Positions 1,290 through 12,086 of a stretch of DNA of 64,000 nucleotides are shown here, piece by piece; positions within the stretch are counted from its first letter, which is position 1, and each line of letters starts with the position of its first letter. Made by a program: the position numbers and the translations under genes. The notes beneath the pieces were generated by a model, which did not search any database, was not told the DNA's origin, and saw only the letters and a program-made list of their open reading frames with translations. The stretch comes from an uncultured archaeon (GTDB taxonomy: Archaea; Hadarchaeota; Hadarchaeia; Hadarchaeales; WYZ-LMO6), in contig CALJER010000017.1 in the NCBI GenBank assembly GCA_938074535.1, positions 314 to 64,313 of the forward strand. The letters run 5' to 3'.

Positions 1290-2339
1290 ATGGTGCTCCT
1301 CACCGAAAAAGAAAAGCAGAGATATTCAAGACAAATCGTCTTTCGAAAAATGGGGGAGAAAGGTCAAGAGATGCTGAAGCAAGCCAAAGTCGCCATATTA
1401 GGTCTAGGAGCGATCGGGAGTCCATTGGCAATTTACCTGGCTTCAGCTGGTGTCGGTTATATAAGGTTAATAGATAGGGATTTGGTAGAACTGAGCAATA
1501 TCCAAAGACAAATCTTGTATGAAGAAAAAGATACCGTGGAATGGAAACCCAAAGCAACCGCGGCCAAAGAAAAGCTGGAAAGGGTTAATTCAGATATAGT
1601 GCCGGAAGCCAGATTTGAGGACTTCAACCCAGCCACGGCCGAAGAACTCGTAGCCGATGTCGACCTCGTTCTGGATGGAACGGATAACCTCGAGGCCAGG
1701 TTCTTGCTCAACGAGGTGTGCGTCAAAAACAACATACCTTTTATCTACGGAGCTGCGATAGAAGACTACGGCGCGGTCAGCTTTATCGTTCCAGGAGAGA
1801 CCCCTTGTTTACGATGCATAATTCCAGAATTGCCTGAACCGGGGAGCTTACCCACGTGCGAAACAGCGGGGGTCCTAGGTCCCGCGCCCGGTGTAGTAGG
1901 TATGATTGAGGCGGCAGAAGCCATCAAATATTTTGTGGGCTTTGGGGAGCTTCTGCGCTCAAAGCTTCTGTACTTCGATCTTTCTTCTCTTTCCTTTGAG
2001 ATCATCGATGTTCATAGGAACCCTAACTGCCCCACGTGTGTTCGCGAGGAATTTCCTCTCCTCAACAGAGAAATAAAACAATCTACCATCAGCACTCTGT
2101 GTGGAAGGAATGCCGTCCAAATCTCCCCCAAAGCTGATTTGGGATTGAACCTGCAGGCCTTGGGGGAAAATCTAAGAAAAAATCCTGAATTCGAGGTTAA
2201 GAAGCTGACTGGGGATTTACTAGTCGTTGAGCACGGCGGACTTTCTATTGCCATAACCCCCTCTGGTAGAGCCATCGTGCGCAACACGAATTCTGAGAAA
2301 AGGGCAAAAAGCGTTTTAAGTAGGATCATAAGTTGCTAG
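1290..2339 (+). CDS. ThiF/MoeB/E1-like adenylyltransferase with C-terminal extension, no rhodanese domain
   Basis: RYSRQ, GLGAIG, DRDLVELSNIQRQ, DGTDN, PCLRC...TCETAGV...CPTC motifs. Confidence 0.9.
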   Translation: MVLLTEKEKQRYSRQIVFRKMGEKGQEMLKQAKVAILGLGAIGSPLAIYLASAGVGYIRLIDRDLVELSNIQRQILYEEKDTVEWKPKATAAKEKLERVNSDIVPEARFEDFNPATAEELVADVDLVLDGTDNLEARFLLNEVCVKNNIPFIYGAAIEDYGAVSFIVPGETPCLRCIIPELPEPGSLPTCETAGVLGPAPGVVGMIEAAEAIKYFVGFGELLRSKLLYFDLSSLSFEIIDVHRNPNCPTCVREEFPLLNREIKQSTISTLCGRNAVQISPKADLGLNLQALGENLRKNPEFEVKKLTGDLLVVEHGGLSIAITPSGRAIVRNTNSEKRAKSVLSRIISC

Positions 2340-2350
2340 AGCCGAGAAAC

Positions 2351-3523
2351 ATGAGAGTTTATCTCGATAATGGAACCACGACACAAGTCGCCAAGGAAGT
2401 TCTGGAGGAGATGCTTCCCTACTTCAGGGAGAAATTCGGTCACCCAACTTTCGTTTATTCGCTTGGACAAGAAGCGGCTGACGCTGTTGAGAGAGCTCAA
2501 GAAATAATCGCAGAATCTATCAACGCGAAACGCGAGGAGATAATATTTACCTCTGGAGCCACGGAAGCCAACGATCTCGCCATCCGGGGTATGGCCTACG
2601 CCAATAAGAAAAGGGGAAACCACATCATCACAACTAAGGTCGAAAATCCTTCCGTTTTACGGGTGTGTGAGAGGTTGGAAAGCGAGGGGTTTAAAGTCGA
2701 CTACCTAGATGTTGACCCGCAGGGGTTCCTAGACCTAAATCAGCTAGAGGACCTCATAAACGATAAAACCATCTTGATCAGCATAATGCACGTCAATGAC
2801 GAAATAGGCACGATCGAACCCATCGAGGAAGTGGGGAAAATACTCCAGGAACTTAGGCAAAGAGTTTATTTTCATGTAAATGCTGCCGCTTCTTATGGTA
2901 GGGTTCCTATCGATGTAGAGAGAATGAACATCGATGCTCTAAGCATAACTGCGCACAAGATCCATGGGCCCAAGGGCGCCGGAGCGCTTTATTTGAGAAC
3001 GAATACGCCCGTAGAGCCGGTGACATGCGGCTATGTCTCCCTCTTTCCCCTTAGGCCAGGCACCGAGAATGTCCCGGCAATCGTGGGATTTGGCAAGGCA
3101 GCTGAGCTGGCCTTCGATGGTTTTGAAAAACACGTGGAACATATGAAAAGACTGAGAGATAAGCTGATGAATGGCATTGAGGAGAAAATTCAACATGTAG
3201 TGCTGCATGGACCAAGAGGTGAGAGGAGAAGTCCTGCGAATGTGAACTATTCCTTCAAGTACGTCGAGGGAGAATCAGTGCTGCTGCACCTGGACTTAAA
3301 CGGCATCTCAGTGGCAACGGGCTCGGCGTGCTCGACGCGGAAGCTGGAACCAAGTCACGTCCTCACCGCCATAGGTGTGAAACCGGAGATCGCGCACGGG
3401 GCCATAAGATTCACGCTGAGCAGATACAACACCAGCGAAGAGATAGACTACGTGCTGGAGGTGCTTCCGAAAGTAATCGAAAATTTGAGGAGGATAAGTC
3501 CGATAAAAGCAGGCCAGTTCTAG
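2351..3523 (+). CDS. iscS: IscS/NifS-like protein with degenerate PLP-contact residues
   Basis: IIFTSGATEAND, AHKIHGPKG, RPGTENV, GSACS (catalytic Cys), IRFTL; but ENPSV instead of EHxAV and HVNAAA instead of HxDAxQ. Start ATG 2351 or TTG 2333. Confidence 0.85.
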   Translation: MRVYLDNGTTTQVAKEVLEEMLPYFREKFGHPTFVYSLGQEAADAVERAQEIIAESINAKREEIIFTSGATEANDLAIRGMAYANKKRGNHIITTKVENPSVLRVCERLESEGFKVDYLDVDPQGFLDLNQLEDLINDKTILISIMHVNDEIGTIEPIEEVGKILQELRQRVYFHVNAAASYGRVPIDVERMNIDALSITAHKIHGPKGAGALYLRTNTPVEPVTCGYVSLFPLRPGTENVPAIVGFGKAAELAFDGFEKHVEHMKRLRDKLMNGIEEKIQHVVLHGPRGERRSPANVNYSFKYVEGESVLLHLDLNGISVATGSACSTRKLEPSHVLTAIGVKPEIAHGAIRFTLSRYNTSEEIDYVLEVLPKVIENLRRISPIKAGQF

Positions 3524-3532
3524 GTGAGGGAA

Positions 3533-3946
3533 ATGCCCGTAGAATATACTGAAAAAAGCCTTCTGAAATACTCGCAGCGTATAATCGAGCTATTCAAAAA
3601 TCCGAAAAATGTGGGAGAAATGGAAAATCCAACGGTAACGGTCAGTGAGGGGGACCCCCAGTGTGGCGACATGATGCAGATGTCACTAAAAATTGAGGGA
3701 AACAAAATCCTTGATGCAAAATTTCTCTCCTTCGGCTGTGCTGCCAACATCGCCACTGGCTCAGCTGTGACCGAAATGATTAAGGGAAAAACCTTGGACG
3801 AGGCAGAGAAGCTTTCTATAAAAGAGGTTTCGGACTCATTAGGGGGCCTTCCCGCTCTTAAAATGCACTGTGCGGTCCTCGCTCACAAAACGCTCCGGAA
3901 GGCGATAAGGGAGTACAGACAAAAAATAGAGGAACTTAAAACCTGA
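3533..3946 (+). CDS. iscU: IscU/NifU-like Fe-S scaffold
   Basis: NPKNVG, PQCGD, FGCAANIA, KMHCAVLA; GGTGA SD before ATG 3533. Confidence 0.92.
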   Translation: MPVEYTEKSLLKYSQRIIELFKNPKNVGEMENPTVTVSEGDPQCGDMMQMSLKIEGNKILDAKFLSFGCAANIATGSAVTEMIKGKTLDEAEKLSIKEVSDSLGGLPALKMHCAVLAHKTLRKAIREYRQKIEELKT

Positions 3947-3954
3947 GAAAGAAT

Positions 3955-4695
3955 ATGGACACGGCCGAGAAGTCCGCTCAATTGATCCTGCCTGGCTTCA
4001 AGGAGAATTGTTCCGTAAGTAGAGGGGTGGAGATTGGAGAACTCTTAAAAATTAGAAAGAATGCCGTGCTTTACATCCAACCGTGCGTCTCTGAAAGAGG
4101 GAAGTTGATAGCCGATGTGGAGCTTAAAAGGGAGGAAGACAAGCCACGGTCCATAGACCCTCCCACACTCTGCTCGATATTAGAAATTCACAAAAGGCGG
4201 TTTGGGGAGTTCAAGTGCAGTAGGAGTCTGGGAGTGGCAAAGCTCAGGTTTAAGGGAAAAGAAATAAGCATATTCAAGAGCGGGAAGCTGAAAATACAGC
4301 GGGTCCTAGATAAGGAAGAGATACTGAAAACAGCGACTTCCATCACCCGCCTCATTTGGGGGGCAGTGGTATGTGACATTTGCGGATATCCTACCATTGC
4401 CTGCGCCTCTGGCAAGTGCGGGAAGTGCATCTCGGAAAGAACTCAACAGGTTACCTTAGAGGAAATTCCCAACGCTGCACCGTTAGTGGAGGGCTATTCA
4501 GCGCTAAAAAAAGCTGAAGAGTTAGGAGGGAAACATCCGGAAGCATTTCAGAAGGCCGTAAACACCGCAGAATATCTAGCGCTCTTTTTCATCGAAGAGG
4601 CTGCGGATAAGGAAACTGCAAGATTGGGATTAATTTTGCTGGGCAAGGCTGAGCAGCTCAAAGAACTCGCATTCAAAAACGTTTTATCTCTATGA
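3955..4695 (+). CDS. Cys-rich hypothetical protein, possibly Fe-S binding (COG4871-like N-terminus)
   Basis: 246-aa ORF in operon; IQPCxSExGK segment and CDICGYPTIACASGKCGKC cluster. Confidence 0.6.
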   Translation: MDTAEKSAQLILPGFKENCSVSRGVEIGELLKIRKNAVLYIQPCVSERGKLIADVELKREEDKPRSIDPPTLCSILEIHKRRFGEFKCSRSLGVAKLRFKGKEISIFKSGKLKIQRVLDKEEILKTATSITRLIWGAVVCDICGYPTIACASGKCGKCISERTQQVTLEEIPNAAPLVEGYSALKKAEELGGKHPEAFQKAVNTAEYLALFFIEEAADKETARLGLILLGKAEQLKELAFKNVLSL

Positions 4696-4715: not shown

Positions 4716-5027
4716 ATGAAGCCCCCTTGCGAAAAGGTGTTTAAAAATGCTCTCCCTGCACTAAGAGCTCTTCTAGTGAAGGATCTCATTGAAAGACATA
4801 ACCTAAGCCAACTCGAGATTGCGCGGAGGTTGGGCATAACCCAGCCGGCGGTCAGTCAGTACCTGAGATCCCTCAGAGGAGTCAGCCACAGTAAGATGCT
4901 CCTCAGGAAGAAAGATTTGATGAAGTCCTTGAGAAAGTTCTCCGACCTTATCGCAAAGGAGGAAATAAGCGAAGACGAGAAACTCAAGATGTACTGTAAA
5001 CTCTGTGAAATTTTGAGAAAGAAATAA
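4716..5027 (+). CDS. Stand-alone HTH transcriptional regulator (COG2522 / ThiR N-terminal-like) with PCE and CxxC cysteines
   Basis: MKPPCE...LPALRALL...LSQLEIARRLGITQPAVSQYL...RG...YCKLC. Confidence 0.85.
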   Translation: MKPPCEKVFKNALPALRALLVKDLIERHNLSQLEIARRLGITQPAVSQYLRSLRGVSHSKMLLRKKDLMKSLRKFSDLIAKEEISEDEKLKMYCKLCEILRKK

Positions 5028-5140: not shown

Positions 5141-5214
5141 TGGAGCCGGGAGCCGGATTTGCACCGGCGTGGGCGGGTCTGCAGCCCGCCGCCTAACTTC
5201 TCGGCCATCCCGGC
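5141..5214 (-). tRNA. tRNA-Cys(GCA), CCA encoded
   Basis: Reverse complement folds: acceptor GCCGGGA/TCCCGGC, U73, anticodon arm GCGGG-CTGCAGA-CCCGC, T arm GCCGG-TGCAAAT-CCGGC. Confidence 0.95.
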
Positions 5215-5222
5215 TCTTATTT

Positions 5223-5237
5223 TATAACGTCGTTATA
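5223..5237. promoter_or_regulatory. Perfect palindromic operator TATAAC-GTC-GTTATA between tRNA-Cys and its TATA-like element
   Basis: Starts 9 bp upstream of tRNA 5' end; TTTTTAAG on minus strand at 5239-5246. Confidence 0.75.
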
Positions 5238-5294: not shown

Positions 5295-5981
5295 ATGCAG
5301 AAGCTCATCTGTTTAGTTTCGGGGGGGATAGATTCACCAGTAGCCTGCGCGCTGATGGCAAAAAGGTTCGAGGTTCTGCCTATGCACTTCTGTCTCTATC
5401 CTTATACGTGCGAAAATGCCTTCTTTGAAGTAGTGAAGGTGCTAAAGCATCTCAGGAGCAAGATAGGCTTCGAAAAAGCCATCGTCTTTCCTTGGGCTTG
5501 GGCTTTGCACACTTTTCTCAAAAATCGGAGAAAAAGCTACGCCTGCCTCGCTTGCAGGGAGGGCATGTTTAGGGTGGCAGAAATTTTCTGCGAGCTGGAA
5601 GGGGCGATAGGCATAGTCACCGGAGAGTCGTTAGGGCAAAAAGCGACCCAGACGTTGGCAAACCTCGTAGCAACTTCCTTTGGAAGAAAGTTCCCGGTTC
5701 TAAGACCACTTTTAGGGCTAGACAAGCAGGAAATAATTGAACTCTCGAGAAAGCTCGGCCTTTGGCACGATACGCATGCGGGTTGCTGTTTTGCCACACC
5801 TAGACACCCATGCACAAAAGCGAGGCTCGGGATGCTCGAAGAGTTCTCAGCTGATGCTGAAGTCAGAAAAGCTATTCGAAAGGGCTTCAAACACTTTCTA
5901 GAGATACGGAGATTCGAGGAGGACTTCGAAAACTATCTAACCTTGCTGGTACAACCGGCAGACGACGATGAAACATTGTGA
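5295..5981 (+). CDS. ThiI-like PP-loop sulfurtransferase, catalytic domain only (no NFLD/THUMP)
   Basis: SGGIDSPVA at residue 9, CLAC, TGESLGQKATQTLANL, RPLLGLDKQEII, GCC. Confidence 0.82.
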   Translation: MQKLICLVSGGIDSPVACALMAKRFEVLPMHFCLYPYTCENAFFEVVKVLKHLRSKIGFEKAIVFPWAWALHTFLKNRRKSYACLACREGMFRVAEIFCELEGAIGIVTGESLGQKATQTLANLVATSFGRKFPVLRPLLGLDKQEIIELSRKLGLWHDTHAGCCFATPRHPCTKARLGMLEEFSADAEVRKAIRKGFKHFLEIRRFEEDFENYLTLLVQPADDDETL

Positions 5982-6796
5982 ATAGCTTGCCTAAGCCTGC
6001 TAAGCATCTCGCTGTGCCTGCGGCAGAATTCCTCCTTCGGCTCCAGTTGGGACTTAATGACCTCCTCTTGCCAGTGGCTGTTGAAGAGTCTGCAAGTCAA
6101 CTTATCGCAAAAAGGATTGCCGAAGACCTGGTAGAAGATTGCCTGCATCGCGTATCCCTTCATTACCTCCGTCAACCTTTCATCCTCATAGTCGATGAAT
6201 CTTCCCCTAAATTTTTCTCTAAGGATCTCAACCGGCAACCCGAGCATCGCATACTGTCTCCTGAGGAAATAGAACTCTCTGGGCATGGCTGGAGCCTCCA
6301 CGACGCCAGTCGTCGAGATGATGGATGGAAAGCCATAAACACTCACTCGCATGTGGTATCTCCGATCACCCTCGTCAAAAGTGGCGAAAAGGCGACCAGT
6401 GAAAATGATATGGATATGCTCGAAACTCAGTTCTCCAGCCGGCAAAAGTTTCCGAAACAACACCTGAAGCTTGAACCCGTCATACAACACCCCAACTCTC
6501 CCAATGCTGGGATTTCGCAAAAGCCTCTTCTCGAATTCCATCTCTGCGGGGAGTGGGTGAAAAAAGGTTTTAGGATTTGTTAAGTCCCTTACCCTTGTCT
6601 CTGCAACTTTGCGAGCGAGGATTTCCTCCAATTCTGGTGGGCTCGACAGGAGGGGGGAAGCTCTAATATCAACGATAGGCTCGCCTAACTTCTCCCTCAG
6701 ATAGGACGCTATCTCCCGGAGCCTGAACGATCGGGAAGGAAAATCCTCGTAAAGGTGGATTTTCGAAGGAACCAACGGCACTACTGACTCCCCCAT
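5933..6796 (-). CDS. Conserved archaeal hypothetical protein (DUF6775-like putative metallopeptidase)
   Basis: HIIFTGRLFATFDEGDRRYH, ISTTGVVEAPA, FCDKLTCRLFNSHWQEE, FCRRH; family recalled from memory. Confidence 0.6.
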   Translation of the reverse strand: MGESVVPLVPSKIHLYEDFPSRSFRLREIASYLREKLGEPIVDIRASPLLSSPPELEEILARKVAETRVRDLTNPKTFFHPLPAEMEFEKRLLRNPSIGRVGVLYDGFKLQVLFRKLLPAGELSFEHIHIIFTGRLFATFDEGDRRYHMRVSVYGFPSIISTTGVVEAPAMPREFYFLRRQYAMLGLPVEILREKFRGRFIDYEDERLTEVMKGYAMQAIFYQVFGNPFCDKLTCRLFNSHWQEEVIKSQLEPKEEFCRRHSEMLSRLRQAIHNVSSSSAGCTSKVR

Positions 6797-6819: not shown

Positions 6820-7596
6820 TCAGAATCCTTTCAATTTTTGCATGGCGATCTCAGCAGCCTTCCTTCCGCTTAAAATCATGGCACCAAAAGTGGGCCCCAT
6901 CCTCGGTAAGCCATAAGCCGTGGTCACGGCCATCCCAGCCACTATGAGGCCTGGATAGAGTTCACCCGTGTGCTCGACCACAAGATCTTCAGAGCGCTCC
7001 ACCCACATCGCCCCATACCCCGGCACCTTGAGGAGGCCTCGCTTTTCGAGCAACCTCACTACCGCTGCCTCGTGTCCGGTGGCGTCAATCACGAGCTTGC
7101 TTTCTAGGCCAATAGGATCCACACATGTAAGCTCTCTAGGCAACGTGGTCACAGGGGTCCAGTTCACCACCACGCCCGCAACCCGTCCTTCACGTAGCAC
7201 TACATCCTCAATGAAAGTCATGTTGAGAAATTTTGCTCCAGCATCGCACGCAGCAGCTATCAGTTTCGAACATGCATGAGGACCATCTGTTACATAAAGT
7301 CCTCTGACGCTTTCTTTAAAAGGCACGCCAAGCTCACGGAGGACCTCATGCGCTGGAGCTCTTATGGTAACGGGATTGAATAGAAAACCGCCTATCCAAA
7401 AACCTCCACCCAGATAGTTGTTCCTTTCTATCACAAGCACTCTGGCTTTTTTTGCTGCGAGTTCTCTAGCCGCCATCACTCCTGCCGGTCCTGCACCCAC
7501 CACTACAACGTCACTCTCCGCGAAGCTATTGAGAGTGGCCAAAAACTCGGAAGCTATAGCTCTCGTTATTTCCTTTTCCCCAACTGGCTGGAACAT
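6820..7596 (-). CDS. thi4: Thiazole synthase Thi4 (Cys-type)
   Basis: [41 protein letters not shown]. Confidence 0.93.
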
Positions 7597-7626
7597 CGTT
7601 TTATTTTTACTTCTCGCTATATAAAT

Positions 7627-7639
7627 ATAACGTCGTTAT
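7627..7639. promoter_or_regulatory. Operator ATAAC-GTC-GTTAT over BRE region of thi4 promoter
   Basis: Exact consensus next to minus-strand TTTATATA (7618-7625). Confidence 0.75.
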
Positions 7640-7755
7640 TTCTCAGAGAACCCGCAGGAGCCAACAGGTTTACAAGGGAGACACGAGCTGCGCCGCCTTT
7701 GTAGGAGTTTAGGATAAGCTCTTCGAAGTTGGGAGCTCCCAACAGCGAAAGAGGT

Positions 7756-8178
7756 TCATAATCGCACCGTTTTCAAGGAGACCGCCAGTGGGTGACCTTT
7801 GGAAGTCATGGAAAAAATTTTTTCCCATCCAAAGGGGGCTTTGCTCACGGAGTAGTTTAAAGATTTGAGTCCTTCGTAGAGTCCTTCTATTATTCTAGCT
7901 GCTACCTCTGGCGTACTTATTTCATTAGAAAGGTGAACAAAGGGGAATACAACCAAGTTTCTCACACCCAAACGCCTAGCGTAGGAGACAATCTCCTCAA
8001 CACCTTTATTGATTACCCTATTGGGGTCACCACCATCACCTTTTTCGACGGTTACAAAAATAACCAAGACATCTTTGATAGCACAACTCTTACATCCATC
8101 CTGTATCTCCTCAGCCGCTTTAGTTGGCTCGGTGACGAGGAAAGAGAAGTAATCGCAATGCAGGAGCAGGAGCTTCAT
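7756..8178 (-). CDS. Free-standing archaeal ThrRS editing-domain-like protein (DTD-like fold)
   Basis: MKLLLLHCDYF, VTVEKGD, FPFVHLS, KAPFGWEK, KGHPLA; only 140 aa. Confidence 0.85.
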   Translation of the reverse strand: MKLLLLHCDYFSFLVTEPTKAAEEIQDGCKSCAIKDVLVIFVTVEKGDGGDPNRVINKGVEEIVSYARRLGVRNLVVFPFVHLSNEISTPEVAARIIEGLYEGLKSLNYSVSKAPFGWEKIFSMTSKGHPLAVSLKTVRL

Positions 8179-8214
8179 ATGTACCTAATAATGTAGTACC
8201 ACAAGCTTTATAAA

Positions 8215-8229
8215 TATAACGTTGTTATA
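8215..8229. promoter_or_regulatory. Operator TATAAC-GTT-GTTATA at divergent promoter of editing-domain gene and pscS
   Basis: Directly follows palindromic TATA box TTTATAAA (8207-8214). Confidence 0.75.
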
Positions 8230-8247
8230 ATACAATGGGGCGATCAA

Positions 8248-9633
8248 ATGGGTGAGAATGCCGTGAGGGCGACCTTTGAAGCCCTATTTGCTCTAACGGA
8301 TCTAAGGCAAATTTTGCGAGAAACTAAACCTACTCATGACCTCGGCACCGAGCAAAAGAAAAAAGTGAGAGAAATCCTCGAAAAAGTGAAAAGGAGCCTG
8401 GATGTCATCGAACGTGACTTAAACAATTGCCAAGAGGAACTCAGTAAACTCGGGAAGATTGTGAACGGAATTGAAGTCAGGGAAAGGGAAGAACTGTTCA
8501 TCAACATCCATCCCATTCAGCCGGGGGGGCGACTCACGCCTGAGGCTATGAAAGCCCTGATTGCGTATGGCGATGGTTATTCCACTTGCGATTGGTGCCG
8601 AAAACCCTTCAGGCTGGACAAGATCAAGAGACCACCCATCGAGGAATTTCACGCAGAATTGGCAGAGTTCCTTGGGATGGACCAAGCCAGAGTAGTCCCG
8701 GGTGCGAGGAGGGGTTTTCAAGCCGTAGTATCCTCGCTCGTTGAAAGAGGAGATCCGGTAATCGTTTCATCGCTCGCCCACTACACAGAGTTCTTGGCAG
8801 TGGAGGATGCGGGAGGAATCGTCAAAGAAGTCCCGCTGAACGAAAAGAACGTCATAACGGCAGACGCAGTAGCCCGGAAGATAGAGGAGGTTAAGAAAGA
8901 AACCGGAAGATTGCCCAGACTGATAATGATAGATCATTTTGATTACATGCTAGGAAACGAGCACGACGTTCGCGGAATCGCTAAGGTAGGAAGAGAATAT
9001 GGGATACCCTTCTTATACAACGGGGCCTATACAATAGGCATCATGCCTGTAAACGGAAAAGAGATTGGCGCAGATTTCTTGGTCGGATCCGGGCATAAAT
9101 CGTTTGCATCGCCAGCGCCCTCTGGGATTGTAGCCACGAGCAACGAGTGGGCGGAGAAAATATTCAGGACTACTCAAATGGTAGGCGATGTAACACGGAG
9201 AAAGTTCGGGATTAAGGAAGTTGAGATGCTGGGCTGTACCCTGATGGGCGCTAACCTCATCGGCATGATGGCCTCCTTTCCCGCCGTCAAGGAAAGGGTA
9301 AAACATTGGGACGAGGAACTTAAAAAAGCAAACTGGTTAGTGAATGAGTTTTTGAAGATTGAAGGAAACAAAGTCTTGAGTGAAATGCCCAGAAAACATA
9401 CTCTAACGAAGGTGGATACTACCGAAAGCTTTGATAAGGTCGCTCGAACGCACAAAAGAAGAGGATTTTTCCTAAGCGACGAGCTGAGCGCCAGGAAAAT
9501 AGTGGGGGAATTTGCGGGGGCTACAAGGAGTTGGAAATTGAACACATATGGACTGACTTGGAAGCAGGTTGCATATCTTGCTCAGGCCTTCAAGGATATT
9601 GCGAGAAAATACGGAATAAAAGTTCTGGAATAA
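8248..9633 (+). CDS. pscS: Sep-tRNA:Cys-tRNA synthase with N-terminal helical extension (SepCysSN-type)
   Basis: INIHPIQPGGRLT, GDGYSTCDWC, AHYTE, GSGHKS, EMLGCT; about 70-aa extra N-terminus. Confidence 0.93.
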   Translation: MGENAVRATFEALFALTDLRQILRETKPTHDLGTEQKKKVREILEKVKRSLDVIERDLNNCQEELSKLGKIVNGIEVREREELFINIHPIQPGGRLTPEAMKALIAYGDGYSTCDWCRKPFRLDKIKRPPIEEFHAELAEFLGMDQARVVPGARRGFQAVVSSLVERGDPVIVSSLAHYTEFLAVEDAGGIVKEVPLNEKNVITADAVARKIEEVKKETGRLPRLIMIDHFDYMLGNEHDVRGIAKVGREYGIPFLYNGAYTIGIMPVNGKEIGADFLVGSGHKSFASPAPSGIVATSNEWAEKIFRTTQMVGDVTRRKFGIKEVEMLGCTLMGANLIGMMASFPAVKERVKHWDEELKKANWLVNEFLKIEGNKVLSEMPRKHTLTKVDTTESFDKVARTHKRRGFFLSDELSARKIVGEFAGATRSWKLNTYGLTWKQVAYLAQAFKDIARKYGIKVLE

Positions 9634-9676
9634 AACAGGCTACGAAAAAGTCTCCACGGGAACCTGCACTCCTAGC

Positions 9677-10333
9677 TTAAGCCCCGAAGCCTGGGGTGGG
9701 GAGGGCCTCCAGCCCCCTCCTGAAGACCCTCAGGAGGAGGAAGAGGGAGAGGAGGGCGTAGAGGCAGCCGGCGGCCAGGTCCTGCCAGTAGTGCTCGCCG
9801 AGGTAGAGGGTGGAGAACATCAGCAGGAGCCAGCTAAGCCCCCAGACGAAGGCCGGCGCCCTTCCCTGCCTGCGGGCGAAGAAGAGGGCGAGCAAACCGT
9901 TGGCGGCGTGAAGGCTGGGGAAGGCCCCCCAGGGGAAGGCGTTGAACCTCTCCGTAACCCCGAAGAGCTCCCTCCTCACCTCCCTCACCCCCGATACGGC
10001 CATGCGGGGTGGAGAAACGGGAAAGAGGAGCCAGGTGGCAAAGCCCAGGAGCTGGCACAGGCCAAAGACCCAGAAGTACTCCTTGAAGGACCTGCTGTCG
10101 CCGGCGAAAAGGAGGAGCAGGGCCGTGGCGTAGATCAGGAAGAGATAACCGAAGGAGTAAACGGCCACCCACCACCTGTCCGAGAGCTCTCCCGAGAGGT
10201 GCTCCTGCAGGAAGAGGACCTCTTCCCCCCCGAAGCTGTGGGGGGAGGAGGGCGCGGGAAAGGCCCTGGGGAGGGCGTCCAGGACCAGCGTCAAAAGGAG
10301 GAAGAGCAGGAAGGGGGTGGTGAGGCCCCTCAC
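9677..10333 (-). CDS. PAP2/AUR1-like membrane phosphatase or phosphotransferase
   Basis: FPVSPPR, AFPSLH, STLYLGEHYWQD; GTG start overlaps upstream TGA. Confidence 0.8.
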   Translation of the reverse strand: MRGLTTPFLLFLLLTLVLDALPRAFPAPSSPHSFGGEEVLFLQEHLSGELSDRWWVAVYSFGYLFLIYATALLLLFAGDSRSFKEYFWVFGLCQLLGFATWLLFPVSPPRMAVSGVREVRRELFGVTERFNAFPWGAFPSLHAANGLLALFFARRQGRAPAFVWGLSWLLLMFSTLYLGEHYWQDLAAGCLYALLSLFLLLRVFRRGLEALPTPGFGA

Positions 10334-11046
10334 CCTTTTCCGCACCTGCCTCCACCCCCCAAGAAGAGCTTCTCCCTCTGGGCGTACCTCTCCTCCATCT
10401 CCCTCACCAGGGAGTCTAACTCCTCCGCCCTGACCGCTCCCGTCTCCACCAGCGCTTTGGCCAGCTCCCTGGCCTGCACCACCTCCGCCAGCTCCCTGTC
10501 GCACGTCCTCCCGAAGGCGGGTGCCCTGCAGTTCTGCCCCACCCTGAGCCCGAAGTACCTGACGGTGTCCGGGGAGGCGGGCTTCCCCTCCAGAGCGCTG
10601 GAGGCCTCCGCGGTGGAGCCGCAGGGAGATCCCCTCAGGAGCCTCACCTTCGCGATCCTCCCGTTCTCCACCTCCAGCCCGAACCTGGGCCTGCCGAAGA
10701 AGCGGGCGAACTCGTCGAAGACCTTCACCCCCGTGTTCCCCTCCAGGGAGCACATGGTGGGGGGCGCGAGCACGTGCGGGTTCCTCCCCCTCGCCTGGCG
10801 CAAAAAGCCCTCCCCGAAGCTCACCCCCAGGATGGTGGGCACCCCCTTCCCCGCCACCTCCAGCGCCACGTCAGGGTGCCTGGCGTAGGAGAGGTAGAGG
10901 TCGCAGGGCGGAAGCTCCAGCTCGAGCTCGTCCACCACCGGGGAGGAAGGAAAGTCCACCAGGATCCACTCCACCCTGAACCTCTTCCCCACGTTCTCCC
11001 TCGCCCTCTCCCCGTACTTCCCGTCCGAGACGATCCCCACCCTCAG
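10330..11046 (-). CDS. DUF166-like archaeal protein
   Basis: GKYGER, PTMCSL, FGRP, RGSPCGST, NCRA; start CTG 11046 or GTG 11040. Confidence 0.65.
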   Translation of the reverse strand: MRVGIVSDGKYGERARENVGKRFRVEWILVDFPSSPVVDELELELPPCDLYLSYARHPDVALEVAGKGVPTILGVSFGEGFLRQARGRNPHVLAPPTMCSLEGNTGVKVFDEFARFFGRPRFGLEVENGRIAKVRLLRGSPCGSTAEASSALEGKPASPDTVRYFGLRVGQNCRAPAFGRTCDRELAEVVQARELAKALVETGAVRAEELDSLVREMEERYAQREKLFLGGGGRCGKG

Positions 11047-12086
11047 CCCTCTCCCCCCTCGAAAACTTTCCTGAGCCTCGCCGCCAGCTCCTCCGGCACG
11101 GTCTCCACCACGGGTTCGTACTGGAACCTCTCCATGAACCCGCTGTCGCTGGTGTAGAGGGGGCGGAGGGGCGGGCGGGAGATGAGCCTGAGGGTGAGCC
11201 TGTGGTACCCTCTGCTCCCCCCTCCCTCGGGGCCCGAGAAGGAGGTGAGGTTGAAGGTCTCCACCCCCAGGTCCGCGTATCCCTTCAGGAGGAGGGAGAG
11301 CCCCTCGGCCAGCTCCCTCACCTCCTCCTCCCCCACCTCCCCGAAACAGGAGCTCTCCCTGAAGACGGCCCAGACCTCGTTCTGCCCCTGCGGGGCGAAG
11401 GCGGCAAGCCAGCAGATTCCCTCGCCCTCCCCTATCCACCTCTCCCCCCTCCTGCGCTCCTCCCTCAGCAGGTCGAGCCAGAAGTTCCTCCCCGTTCTCC
11501 TCCTGTACCTCCTCCCCCCCTCCATCACCCTCCCCAGCCAGAAGGTGGGGGTGCGGTCGGCGAGGAGCTGGAAGTGCGGGTGCACGATGCTGGCCGCGGC
11601 GGAGGGGAGGTGGTTCCAGTTCAGCATCAGGTACTCACTCCCCGGCTCCACCTCCCTCACCCTCCCGAAGTACTCCAGGGAGAGGCGCAGCGCGTCCTCC
11701 AGCATGCGGGGAGGGAACTCGCGGACGGTGAGGAGGTGCTCCCTGCTCAGGACCACCACGGCGTGGAACTCGGCGAAGGGGAAGAGGTTGGGGAAGAGCA
11801 CTGCCTCCCCCCTCCTCATCCTCTCCTCCCCGAACTCGGGCGGGAGCTTGGGGGTGGAGCGCTCCAGGTTCTCGGGGCAGAAGAAGCACCCGCTGGCCGA
11901 GGCCTTCAGGAGCTCCAGTGGGCTCTCCCCCATCGCCTGCCTCACCCTCTTCGCCCTCTCCAGGTTGATCCTGCTCCACCTTCCCGTGAGGGGGTCCCTC
12001 CTGAACTCCACCCTCTGGGCCACGGGGGTGAATCCCTCCAGGGGGCTGAGGAAGCGGGCTATCCTCACCTCCTTGCGAAAAAACAT
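11043..12086 (-). CDS. Galactose-1-phosphate uridylyltransferase-like (GalT/HIT family)
   Basis: RRDPLTG, CFFCP, FPNLFPF, ASIVHPHFQ. Confidence 0.85.
   Translation of the reverse strand: MFFRKEVRIARFLSPLEGFTPVAQRVEFRRDPLTGRWSRINLERAKRVRQAMGESPLELLKASASGCFFCPENLERSTPKLPPEFGEERMRRGEAVLFPNLFPFAEFHAVVVLSREHLLTVREFPPRMLEDALRLSLEYFGRVREVEPGSEYLMLNWNHLPSAAASIVHPHFQLLADRTPTFWLGRVMEGGRRYRRRTGRNFWLDLLREERRRGERWIGEGEGICWLAAFAPQGQNEVWAVFRESSCFGEVGEEEVRELAEGLSLLLKGYADLGVETFNLTSFSGPEGGGSRGYHRLTLRLISRPPLRPLYTSDSGFMERFQYEPVVETVPEELAARLRKVFEGGEG

Follow-up and report, generated by a model that had tools for sequence, protein, structure and literature searches.

The stretch of DNA considered here (the window) comprises 64,000 nucleotides of contig CALJER010000017.1 (C17) in assembly GCA_938074535.1, a Hadarchaeota genome of 1.2 Mb in 53 contigs that is 93.6% complete. 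Towards its left end, on the minus strand (7756..8178), lies an intact open reading frame (ORF) with an ATG start that encodes a 140-aa stand-alone editing domain of the kind found in threonyl-tRNA synthetase (ThrRS). It is a 'tRNA-Thr-ED' in published terms and a member of what is called class A below, and it is referred to here as ED. The gene is arranged head-to-head with one on the plus strand (8248..9633) for SepCysS, the synthase of the O-phosphoserine (Sep) route to Cys-tRNA, and the two share a divergent promoter region of 69 bp (8179..8247). A palindromic TATA-like box, TTTATAAA (8207-8214), is located about 32 nt from the ATG of ED and about 37 nt from that of SepCysS, and beside it is an operator-like near-palindrome, ATAACGTTGTTAT (8216-8228), of repeat family D1. 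A motif search for the element of this spacer gave two matches with none expected. On the minus strand, an inverted repeat directly 3' of the ED stop codon (7722..7749) is predicted to fold into a stem-loop (-16.6 kcal/mol, z -3.16), so ED looks like its own transcription unit. The first-pass annotation of the window had described an editing domain with neither a synthetase nor an anticodon-binding part, facing SepCysS across a palindromic TATA box and one operator, and the description is accurate. It had also proposed a candidate proofreader for the Sep/Cys-tRNA route, and this has fared less evenly. A role on tRNA(Cys) would be the best reading of the sequence data, but a CxxC motif and a Tyr-to-Glu exchange leave room for another substrate or another role.

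The identity of the domain is clear. Residues 1-137 match positions 1-136 of the 137 in PF08915 (tRNA-Thr_ED; E 3.2e-39, 134.6 bits against a cut-off of 30.2) and the Pfam search gave no other domain in the 140 aa. In NCBIfam, ED spans just positions 1-138 of the 613-position ThrRS model. Against NF011500, the Ser-tRNA(Thr) hydrolase, it scores 93.5 bits for a cut-off of 362 and covers only positions 1-130 of 387. Because only the starts of both models are covered, ED is neither a synthetase nor a ThrRS-ed of the crenarchaeal type, and both of these candidate identities have been dropped. The profile of the D-aminoacyl-tRNA deacylase (DTD) family DTD2 (PF04414) has no match to the ED ORF in the Pfam search. 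ED is also a real gene and not a chance ORF, because it has 33 related protein clusters (134-156 aa, 39-99% identity), occurs in 13 genomic and 51 metagenomic loci, and shows a median ratio of nonsynonymous to synonymous substitution (dN/dS) of 0.12 (21 pairs with computable dS).

The closest solved relatives are the editing domains PabNTD (1y2q, 108 bits) and MjNTD (106 bits) of archaeal ThrRSs. The residues of interest in ED are C8, C29-x-x-C32, P79-F80-V81-H82, G117-W118-E119-K120, H129 and V133. When these are mapped onto PabNTD (1y2q), C8 falls on Ser8, C29 on Met30, C32 on Gly33, V81 on Ala82 and H82 on His83, W118-E119-K120 falls on Tyr119-Tyr120-Lys121, H129 on His130 and V133 on Glu134. 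PabNTD residues P80, F81, H83 and K121 are conserved as P79, F80, H82 and K120, and they are invariant across a 33-sequence alignment. Two side chains of the serine pocket, Tyr120 and Glu134, are absent from ED, which has E119 and V133 instead. The rest of the active-site surroundings is canonical in class A (P79, H82-L83-S84, F116-G117, K120 and K127-G128-H129-P130). The three motifs that had been singled out in the first-pass annotation as departures from consensus (FPFVHLS, FGWEK and GHPLAV) are all found in the translation, and the invariant lysine it had noticed is Lys120.

Do these departures speak against hydrolysis? Work on PabNTD suggests that they do not. In the part of that work drawn on here, catalysis is by the 2'-OH of the tRNA, and the only side chains within 6 Å of the scissile bond are those of Pro80, Phe81, Ala82, His83, Tyr120, Lys121 and Glu134' (Ahmad et al., 2015; PMC4491819). 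The H83A and K121M variants are inactive; Y120A and E134A retain activity and specificity (Ahmad et al., 2015). Since the two pocket variants stay active and specific, the deviant motifs of ED are no argument against hydrolysis. Going by sequence, a pocket with the carboxylate of Glu119 would presumably be unfavourable to the phosphate of Sep and the thiolate of Cys, yet accept the hydroxyl of Ser.

Class A is a tight group. A search of 1.84 billion representatives gave 1185 matches at E<=0.001, among which class A is a single 50%-identity representative at 222.8 bits, followed by the next match at 169.8 bits. The 12 class-A sequences group as a single clade in a 146-domain tree (98 in the Shimodaira-Hasegawa-like approximate likelihood ratio test, SH-aLRT; stem 0.46). 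Outside this clade the tree is unresolved, with 64 of 143 forks open, for which reason class A is not traced here to any one ThrRS lineage. The signature of the group is the combination of C29-x-x-C32 with G-W-E-K, the latter placing Glu at the Tyr120 position, and it is present in every complete class-A sequence. Both CxxC and GWEK are absent from all fused ThrRS domains in the alignment table, and the CxxC sits in a loop that is variable among canonical domains. His82 and Lys120 are kept in all 32 complete class-A sequences. One relative that is only 44% identical and located beside a tRNA-Cys gene (locus L022) has both the CxxC and the Glu119 equivalent.

Other stand-alone types of the domain exist. 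Class B proteins are 37-44% identical, about 150 aa long and have the canonical GWYK pocket without the CxxC. In five loci (L024, L027, L028, L030 and L040) a class B gene starts 9-12 nt past a tRNA-Cys gene on the same strand, and L025 and L022 are listed alongside these for a stand-alone ED near tRNA-Cys. In L026, L027 and L040 the essential Lys of the stand-alone ED, again beside tRNA-Cys, is replaced by Asn (GWYN or GWSN). Because some members have lost the Lys121 equivalent, hydrolysis is not always conserved in the wider stand-alone group.

The link between ED and SepCysS is recurrent but not obligate. In a genomic survey that found 220 ED relatives, the 80 best loci include 13 with class A. 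The relatives in these are 57-67% identical to the window protein (12 are 140-aa ORFs and one is broken), and the loci of close relatives belong to Hadarchaeota, Hadesarchaea or Bathyarchaeia. SepCysS of the window type (76-86% identical) is found in 7 of the 13, or 8 if L023, with the N-terminal piece alone, is counted. tRNA-Cys is found in 6, a set of IscS, IscU and a 246-aa protein in 5, ThiF in 5 and a SufS-like gene in 4. Metagenomic data give a similar list: among 51 class-A loci, a set that includes many short and some nearly duplicate ones, the SepCysS type is present in 28, tRNA-Cys in 29, ThiF in 26 and a gene for a helix-turn-helix (HTH) protein in 14. Of the 13 genomes with class A, 11 have an above-cut-off match to SepRS, the synthetase of the Sep route; it was not found in those of L011 and L023, both of which lack a completeness estimate. 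A set of 66 genomes of the phylum has class A in 7, the SepCysS type in 14 and both in 5, and one more has an ED remnant next to SepCysS. A ThrRS with a fused editing domain is kept in all seven phylum genomes with class A.

ED can also be found in other company. L014 and L019 have a ThrC-like pyridoxal phosphate (PLP) enzyme with ThiS and ThiF beside ED. More generally, in L014, L116, L119, L019 and L118 the class-A gene neighbours, in some cases divergently, either a ThrC-like PLP enzyme with ThiS and ThiF or ThiS plus tRNA-Cys. The ThrC-like/ThiS/ThiF set resembles a pathway of sulfur incorporation from a protein thiocarboxylate; the window has a DUF6775 metallopeptidase too. As for the tRNA genes, 93-nt calls of 'tRNA-Leu' or 'tRNA-Ser' upstream of the separate N-terminal piece of SepCysS in L016 and L019 may be intron-bearing tRNA-Cys genes.

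The SepCysS neighbour has 461 aa (TIGR02539, 418.6 bits for a cut-off of 365.25), of which about 70-80 make up a helical extension at the N-terminus. Its core is that of known structures, with a match to 3wkr/5x6b of 318.8 bits over residues 81-452 and matches to 3wkr/5x6b and 2e7i that extend over 81-455. It retains C114, C117, C330 and K284 in invariant columns. The extension is of interest because Mukai et al. (2017; PMC5424206) describe a SepCysE-like N-terminal piece that occurs both as a part of SepCysS (SepCysSN) and as a separate protein (SepCysSn). The extended window protein corresponds to the fused form, which in the part of their account used here is described for clade VII only. 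The split form also occurs near ED. The N-terminal 60 or so residues (window 8248-8460) are a separate 60-62-aa ORF in L010, L011, L012, L016 and L019, and L015 has a 60-aa ORF next to a possibly fused form of 456 aa, which brings the other loci with a separate piece to six. The separate ORF is in a different frame, and in loci with a clean start of the long ORF the two share 4 nt at the beginning of SepCysS. Elsewhere fused forms are 441-481 aa long. No SepCysE chain is among the matches listed when the whole protein was compared with the PDB up to E=10 (the best 60 of 87).

One explanation for a free editing domain would be a host ThrRS that cannot edit. This does not apply here. The host ThrRS is full length (615 aa; NF003068, 715 bits over 1-612 of 613) and has its own N-terminal editing domain with the canonical motifs PYAHLS, FGWYK and KGHPLSE, so ED does not compensate for an editing-less ThrRS. 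The Sep route, on the other hand, seems indispensable. The genome has SepRS (534 bits) and a second, native SepCysS that scores higher with the family model (507 bits) than the copy in the window. A search of the whole genome did not find CysRS, the cysteinyl-tRNA synthetase (best score 29.3 bits for a cut-off of 340). With SepRS and SepCysS present and CysRS not found, these two enzymes appear to be the host's sole means of forming Cys-tRNA. The native tRNA-Cys is located on the SepRS contig (C9), which also encodes DTD2 (PF04414, 170 bits). Both tRNA-Cys genes and both tRNA-Thr genes found in the host have U73; these counts refer to tRNAs of normal length, as the intron mode of ARAGORN gave many implausibly long calls. 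Because the host ThrRS retains its editing domain, the linkage to SepCysS recurs and tRNA-Cys genes adjoin, a role on tRNA(Cys) within the Sep route would be the best reading of ED.

The operator next to the TATA-like box is not confined to the ED-SepCysS spacer. A second copy of the box and operator is found at 7616..7639, 20-43 nt upstream of the start of the thiazole synthase gene Thi4, and its operator (7627-7639) is the perfect palindrome ATAACGTCGTTAT. A third (5213..5236), again with a perfect palindrome (5224-5236), lies between a tRNA-Cys gene and a ThiI-like gene, and a fourth operator site lies just left of the window (C17:262-274), before an operon that begins with a SufS-like gene. 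With up to one mismatch, ATAACG-N-CGTTAT occurs four times in the 1.2 Mb genome; all four sites fall within the low-GC island described below and each is next to a TATA-like box. The same operator occurs 27 times in 27 loci with a stand-alone ED (258 kb) from several phyla, and once in 53 loci with fused or contig-cut ThrRS (504 kb). Its usual position in other loci is just upstream of ED, tRNA-Cys, IscS or an HTH gene. In front of tRNA-Cys it is often 10-17 nt from the 5' end of the tRNA, and in 21 of the 51 metagenomic class-A loci it is within 80 nt upstream of ED. Because their promoters share one palindromic operator, the putative proofreader would be made along with extra Cys-tRNA and sulfur-mobilizing machinery.

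What could bind this operator? The candidate is a 103-aa protein encoded on the plus strand (4716..5027) that has HTH matches in Pfam. Three of its cysteines are invariant in 12 of 12 homologues, namely C5 in a PPCE motif near the N-terminus and the two of a C-terminal YCxxC. Operators are located directly upstream of the genes for its homologues in other loci. It is likely that the HTH protein is the repressor of the regulon, and a repressor that senses Fe-S or thiol status is a candidate function. The palindromic operator and the three-cysteine regulator, so paired, would join the whole island into one conserved regulon.

The island referred to above extends from the left end of the window to about position 9650 (C17:1-9960), at the contig end. 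Its guanine-plus-cytosine (GC) content is 47-52% (about 49%), compared with about 64% in the remaining window and in the genome. The right border (9634..9680) is marked by composition, with about 49% GC to the left and 63-68% to the right. Individual genes show the same contrast: ED has 44.4% GC and the island SepCysS 48.0%, whereas the native SepCysS has 66.8%, SepRS 63.8% and the ThrRS-ED region 68.4%. The loci of ED relatives have 43-54%. Neither a free ED nor the island type of SepCysS was found in four other genomes of the genus (0 of 4). An assembly chimera as the source of the jump in GC is unlikely. One Logan contig of run X1 bridges the border (9328-12000) and another covers 7000-9228, at similar depths (7.0 vs 8.7); 99 nt inside SepCysS (9229-9327), between the two contig ends, are not covered by the listed contigs of this run. 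X1 is the sole run with contigs for the region, runs X2 and X3 having given none, and is probably the source sample, which means that it is not independent data. On the strength of the GC contrast, the absence from genomes of the same genus and the contig across the border, the island is read as horizontally acquired and not as a chimera.

Besides ED, SepCysS and the HTH protein, the island is rich in sulfur genes. Profile and homology searches identify, all on the plus strand, a SufS-like desulfurase (24-1229), a ThiF/MoeB-like E1 (1290-2339), a NifS/IscS-like desulfurase (2333-3523) and IscU (3524-3946). These are followed by a conserved 246-aa protein (3955-4695, plus strand) without a Pfam or NCBIfam match, which a protein atlas places in an unnamed cluster centred on Hadarchaeota and which comes after IscS-IscU in 5 of the 13 genomic class-A loci. 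Further along is a tRNA-Cys(GCA) gene (5141..5214, minus strand) with G37, U73 and an encoded CCA. This is a second copy besides the native one on C9, with which it shares 47 of 74 positions when the two are compared without gaps. Next are a ThiI-like PP-loop ATPase of 228 aa (5295..5981, plus strand; PF02568, 127.4 bits), the DUF6775 protein, a probable metallopeptidase (5933..6796, minus strand; PF20565, 304.5 bits), and the sulfide-dependent thiazole synthase Thi4 (6820..7596, minus strand; PF01946, 237 bits; TIGR00292, 252.5 bits).

How might these observations fit together? In the explanation that we favour, and on which our judgement is evenly balanced, ED serves the Sep route as a free deacylase of Ser-tRNA(Cys), and its production is part of a mobile regulon for sulfur and Cys-tRNA. 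It would be a free-standing aminoacyl-tRNA deacylase with the DTD-like fold of the archaeal ThrRS editing domain, acting on tRNA(Cys) and not on tRNA(Thr). We infer both the substrate and the hydrolysis itself. Ser-tRNA(Cys) could arise in two ways. Sep-tRNA(Cys) might lose its phosphate, or water might take the place of sulfur in the addition to the aminoacrylate intermediate of SepCysS. The free domain would then bind the CCA-aminoacyl end of a tRNA with U73 and hydrolyse the wrong ester ahead of the ribosome. It has been argued that the domain reads U73, which is common to tRNA(Cys) and tRNA(Thr) (Mukai et al., 2022; PMC8762117). The proofreader would have come with an acquired, self-regulated island that brings its own tRNA-Cys, SepCysSN-SepCysS, two cysteine desulfurases, IscU, ThiF, Thi4, the ThiI-like protein and the three-cysteine HTH regulator.

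Several observations do not fit this explanation well. One is the pocket. Class A differs from every fused ThrRS domain examined, both in the invariant Glu for Tyr120 and in the CxxC of an otherwise variable loop. The bacterial SepRS proteins that carry the domain in cis reportedly have a fully intact serine motif (Mukai et al., 2022; PMC8762117), and the window protein is free and has the Glu. Another is the distribution. Class A is not obligately tied to the SepCysS type, as the incomplete overlap among the 66 phylum genomes makes plain. There are more than 120 close SepCysS clusters against 33 of ED, and in 5 of the 13 genomic loci ED is beside IscS-IscU or the ThrC-like/ThiS/ThiF set with no SepCysS in view. 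Then there is the company of a second ED. Class A and an ED with a canonical pocket are found together on at least four contigs, and this occurrence on one contig hints that the two are non-redundant and have different jobs. Finally, the literature searched has no activity data for any stand-alone tRNA-Thr-ED. The name 'tRNA-Thr-ED' is used there only by Mukai et al. (2017, 2022). The term 'Ser-tRNACys' appears only in Mukai et al. (2017) and in one code-evolution paper of 2026, and an experimental test was not found.

Perhaps, then, ED is an editing fold that has been put to a new use. In this alternative, the main rival though in our judgement a doubtful one, class A would have a sulfur or redox role and dock the 3' end of tRNA(Cys). 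The CxxC might reduce or resolve a sulfur-linked Cys-tRNA intermediate (a mixed disulfide, persulfide or thioester), or it might supply SepCysS with sulfur taken over from ThiS or the desulfurases. Where only the short SepCysSn/N piece is present, ED might even partly replace the tRNA-binding half of SepCysE. The pairing of C29 and C32 with Glu119 in every complete class-A sequence and in L022, and in none of the fused ThrRS domains examined, is what such a role would lead one to look for, as are the single clade on a long stem and the co-occurrence with a canonical-pocket ED on at least four contigs. ED is always among sulfur-transfer genes, sometimes without SepCysS, and the HTH protein of the regulon likewise has a conserved CxxC. 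Set against this is the hydrolytic scaffold (His82, Lys120, PF.HLS and GHP), which is fully kept, as expected of an active deacylase. In addition, the PabNTD equivalents of C8, C29 and C32 are outside the seven side chains that Ahmad et al. (2015; PMC4491819) place within 6 Å of the scissile bond. An elaborate version of the idea, which we consider rather improbable, would make class A a redox-active variant (CxxC loop and pocket Glu) that is no serine proofreader. With the 3' end of tRNA(Cys) in its grip, it would either resolve a sulfur intermediate of tRNA-dependent Cys synthesis or deliver one, leaving serine editing to the second, canonical ED. The module of tRNA-Cys, SepCysS, desulfurases, ThiS/ThiF and ED would then be a mobile regulon responsive to Fe-S status or to a lack of sulfur, under a so far undescribed three-cysteine HTH repressor acting through ATAACG-N-CGTTAT.

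The remaining alternatives keep closer to known members of the fold. Could ED simply be a back-up trans-editor of Ser-tRNA(Thr), like the crenarchaeal free-standing protein, that is in a sulfur island by chance? Its fold and key residues are those of a Ser-tRNA(Thr) editing domain and, as the host tRNA-Thr genes have U73, a free domain that reads this base could reach tRNA(Thr). However, the host ThrRS and those of all seven phylum genomes with class A have a fused editing domain already, ED lacks the anticodon-binding part of ThrRS-ed (93.5 bits against NF011500), and its association with tRNA-Cys, SepCysS and the shared operator is repeated in different phyla, all of which makes a back-up role unlikely. 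It is very unlikely that ED binds tRNA(Cys) without hydrolysis, whether to shield or carry Cys- or Sep-tRNA(Cys) or to sense the charging state for the regulon. The idea draws on the stand-alone EDs of L026, L027 and L040 that have lost the essential Lys and on the apparent co-regulation of ED with tRNA-Cys through the shared operator, but the retention of Lys120 and His82 throughout class A goes against it. Hardly credible is a D-aminoacyl-tRNA deacylase. This would be the ancestral activity of the fold, which is DTD-like (Ahmad et al., 2015; PMC4491819), but the genome already has DTD2 and the surroundings of the gene point specifically to sulfur and tRNA-Cys.

Why does it matter whether ED is a proofreader? 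Organisms that make Cys-tRNA by the Sep route only need some means to keep serine and phosphoserine out of cysteine codons. To our knowledge no proofreading factor has been demonstrated for this route, and the tRNA-Thr-ED family is the published candidate. The present analysis sharpens the test in three ways. First, a close-knit subfamily can be recognized by two diagnostic changes, Glu in place of Tyr120 and the CxxC loop. Second, this subfamily occurs together with a ThrRS that is competent in editing and, in some cases, with another free ED. Third, there is an operator and a likely regulator that would co-induce ED, a dedicated tRNA-Cys and sulfur-mobilizing enzymes. If the CxxC does turn out to be functional, an editing fold would have gained a role in sulfur chemistry, with a bearing on the unsolved question of where SepCysS obtains its sulfur in vivo.

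Among known systems, SepCysE is an accessory protein with a part in the handling of tRNA(Cys) by the SepRS-SepCysS route; by the account attributed to Chen et al. in 2017, it is said to be the scaffold of the methanogen transsulfursome. The short N-terminal piece of the window SepCysS is related by Mukai et al. (2017) to the N-domain of SepCysE. ED has no sequence relation to SepCysE, and a scaffold role for it is speculation only. Closer in sequence are the N-terminal editing domains of archaeal ThrRS (PabNTD, 1Y2Q/2HL0; MjNTD, 4RRF; PMC4491819), which belong to the same Pfam family over the full length and have their Pro80, Phe81, His83, Lys121 and His130 equivalents kept in ED. The known fold of this family is DTD-like and dimeric, with an active site formed across the subunits. 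In contrast to PabNTD, ED is unfused, has Glu for Tyr120, Val for Ala82 and Val for Glu134 (the last in the window protein only), and has its CxxC at Met30/Gly33 of PabNTD. The crenarchaeal ThrRS-ed or ThrRS-2 (A. pernix, 4RR6; NF011500) likewise acts in trans with the same editing domain. It is about 387 aa long, has an anticodon-binding part and is found where the catalytic ThrRS lacks editing, whereas the window protein has 140 aa and coexists with a ThrRS that has its own editing domain. In the bacterial fusion of SepRS with an N-terminal tRNA-Thr-ED (Mukai et al., 2022; PMC8762117) the same domain has been recruited to the same Sep/Cys-tRNA route.

The nearest precedent is the stand-alone tRNA-Thr-ED itself. 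Small genes of this name that occur in methanogens and in MSBL1/Hadesarchaea, where they are coupled to sulfur genes, tRNA-Cys and SepCysS of clade VII, have been described in mBio (Mukai et al., 2017; PMC5424206) and Frontiers in Genetics (Mukai et al., 2022; PMC8762117), the methanogen clade being distinct from that of MSBL1/Hadesarchaea (Mukai et al., 2017). The fused SepCysSN form and the Hadarchaeota/Hadesarchaea affiliation of relatives are indirect pointers that the SepCysS considered here may belong to clade VII and ED to the MSBL1/Hadesarchaea clade. Both papers already propose trans-editing of Ser-tRNA(Cys), contrary to the belief in the first-pass annotation that no trans-editing factor had been described for this pathway. 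The window has the same single-domain gene next to SepCysS with its SepCysSn/N piece, tRNA-Cys and sulfur genes in an archaeon of the Hadesarchaea type. The arrangement is no different and the proposed function, serine editing on tRNA(Cys), is identical, so both the arrangement and the idea are already known. The parts of the main-text account considered here do not describe the CxxC/GWEK signature, the operator with its three-cysteine regulator, the foreign island or the placement of ED with IscS-IscU or ThiS/ThiF in the absence of SepCysS. The signature of the subfamily, the operator with its putative regulator, the apparent foreign origin of the island and the frequency of sulfur contexts that lack SepCysS may therefore be what the present locus adds to the published picture.

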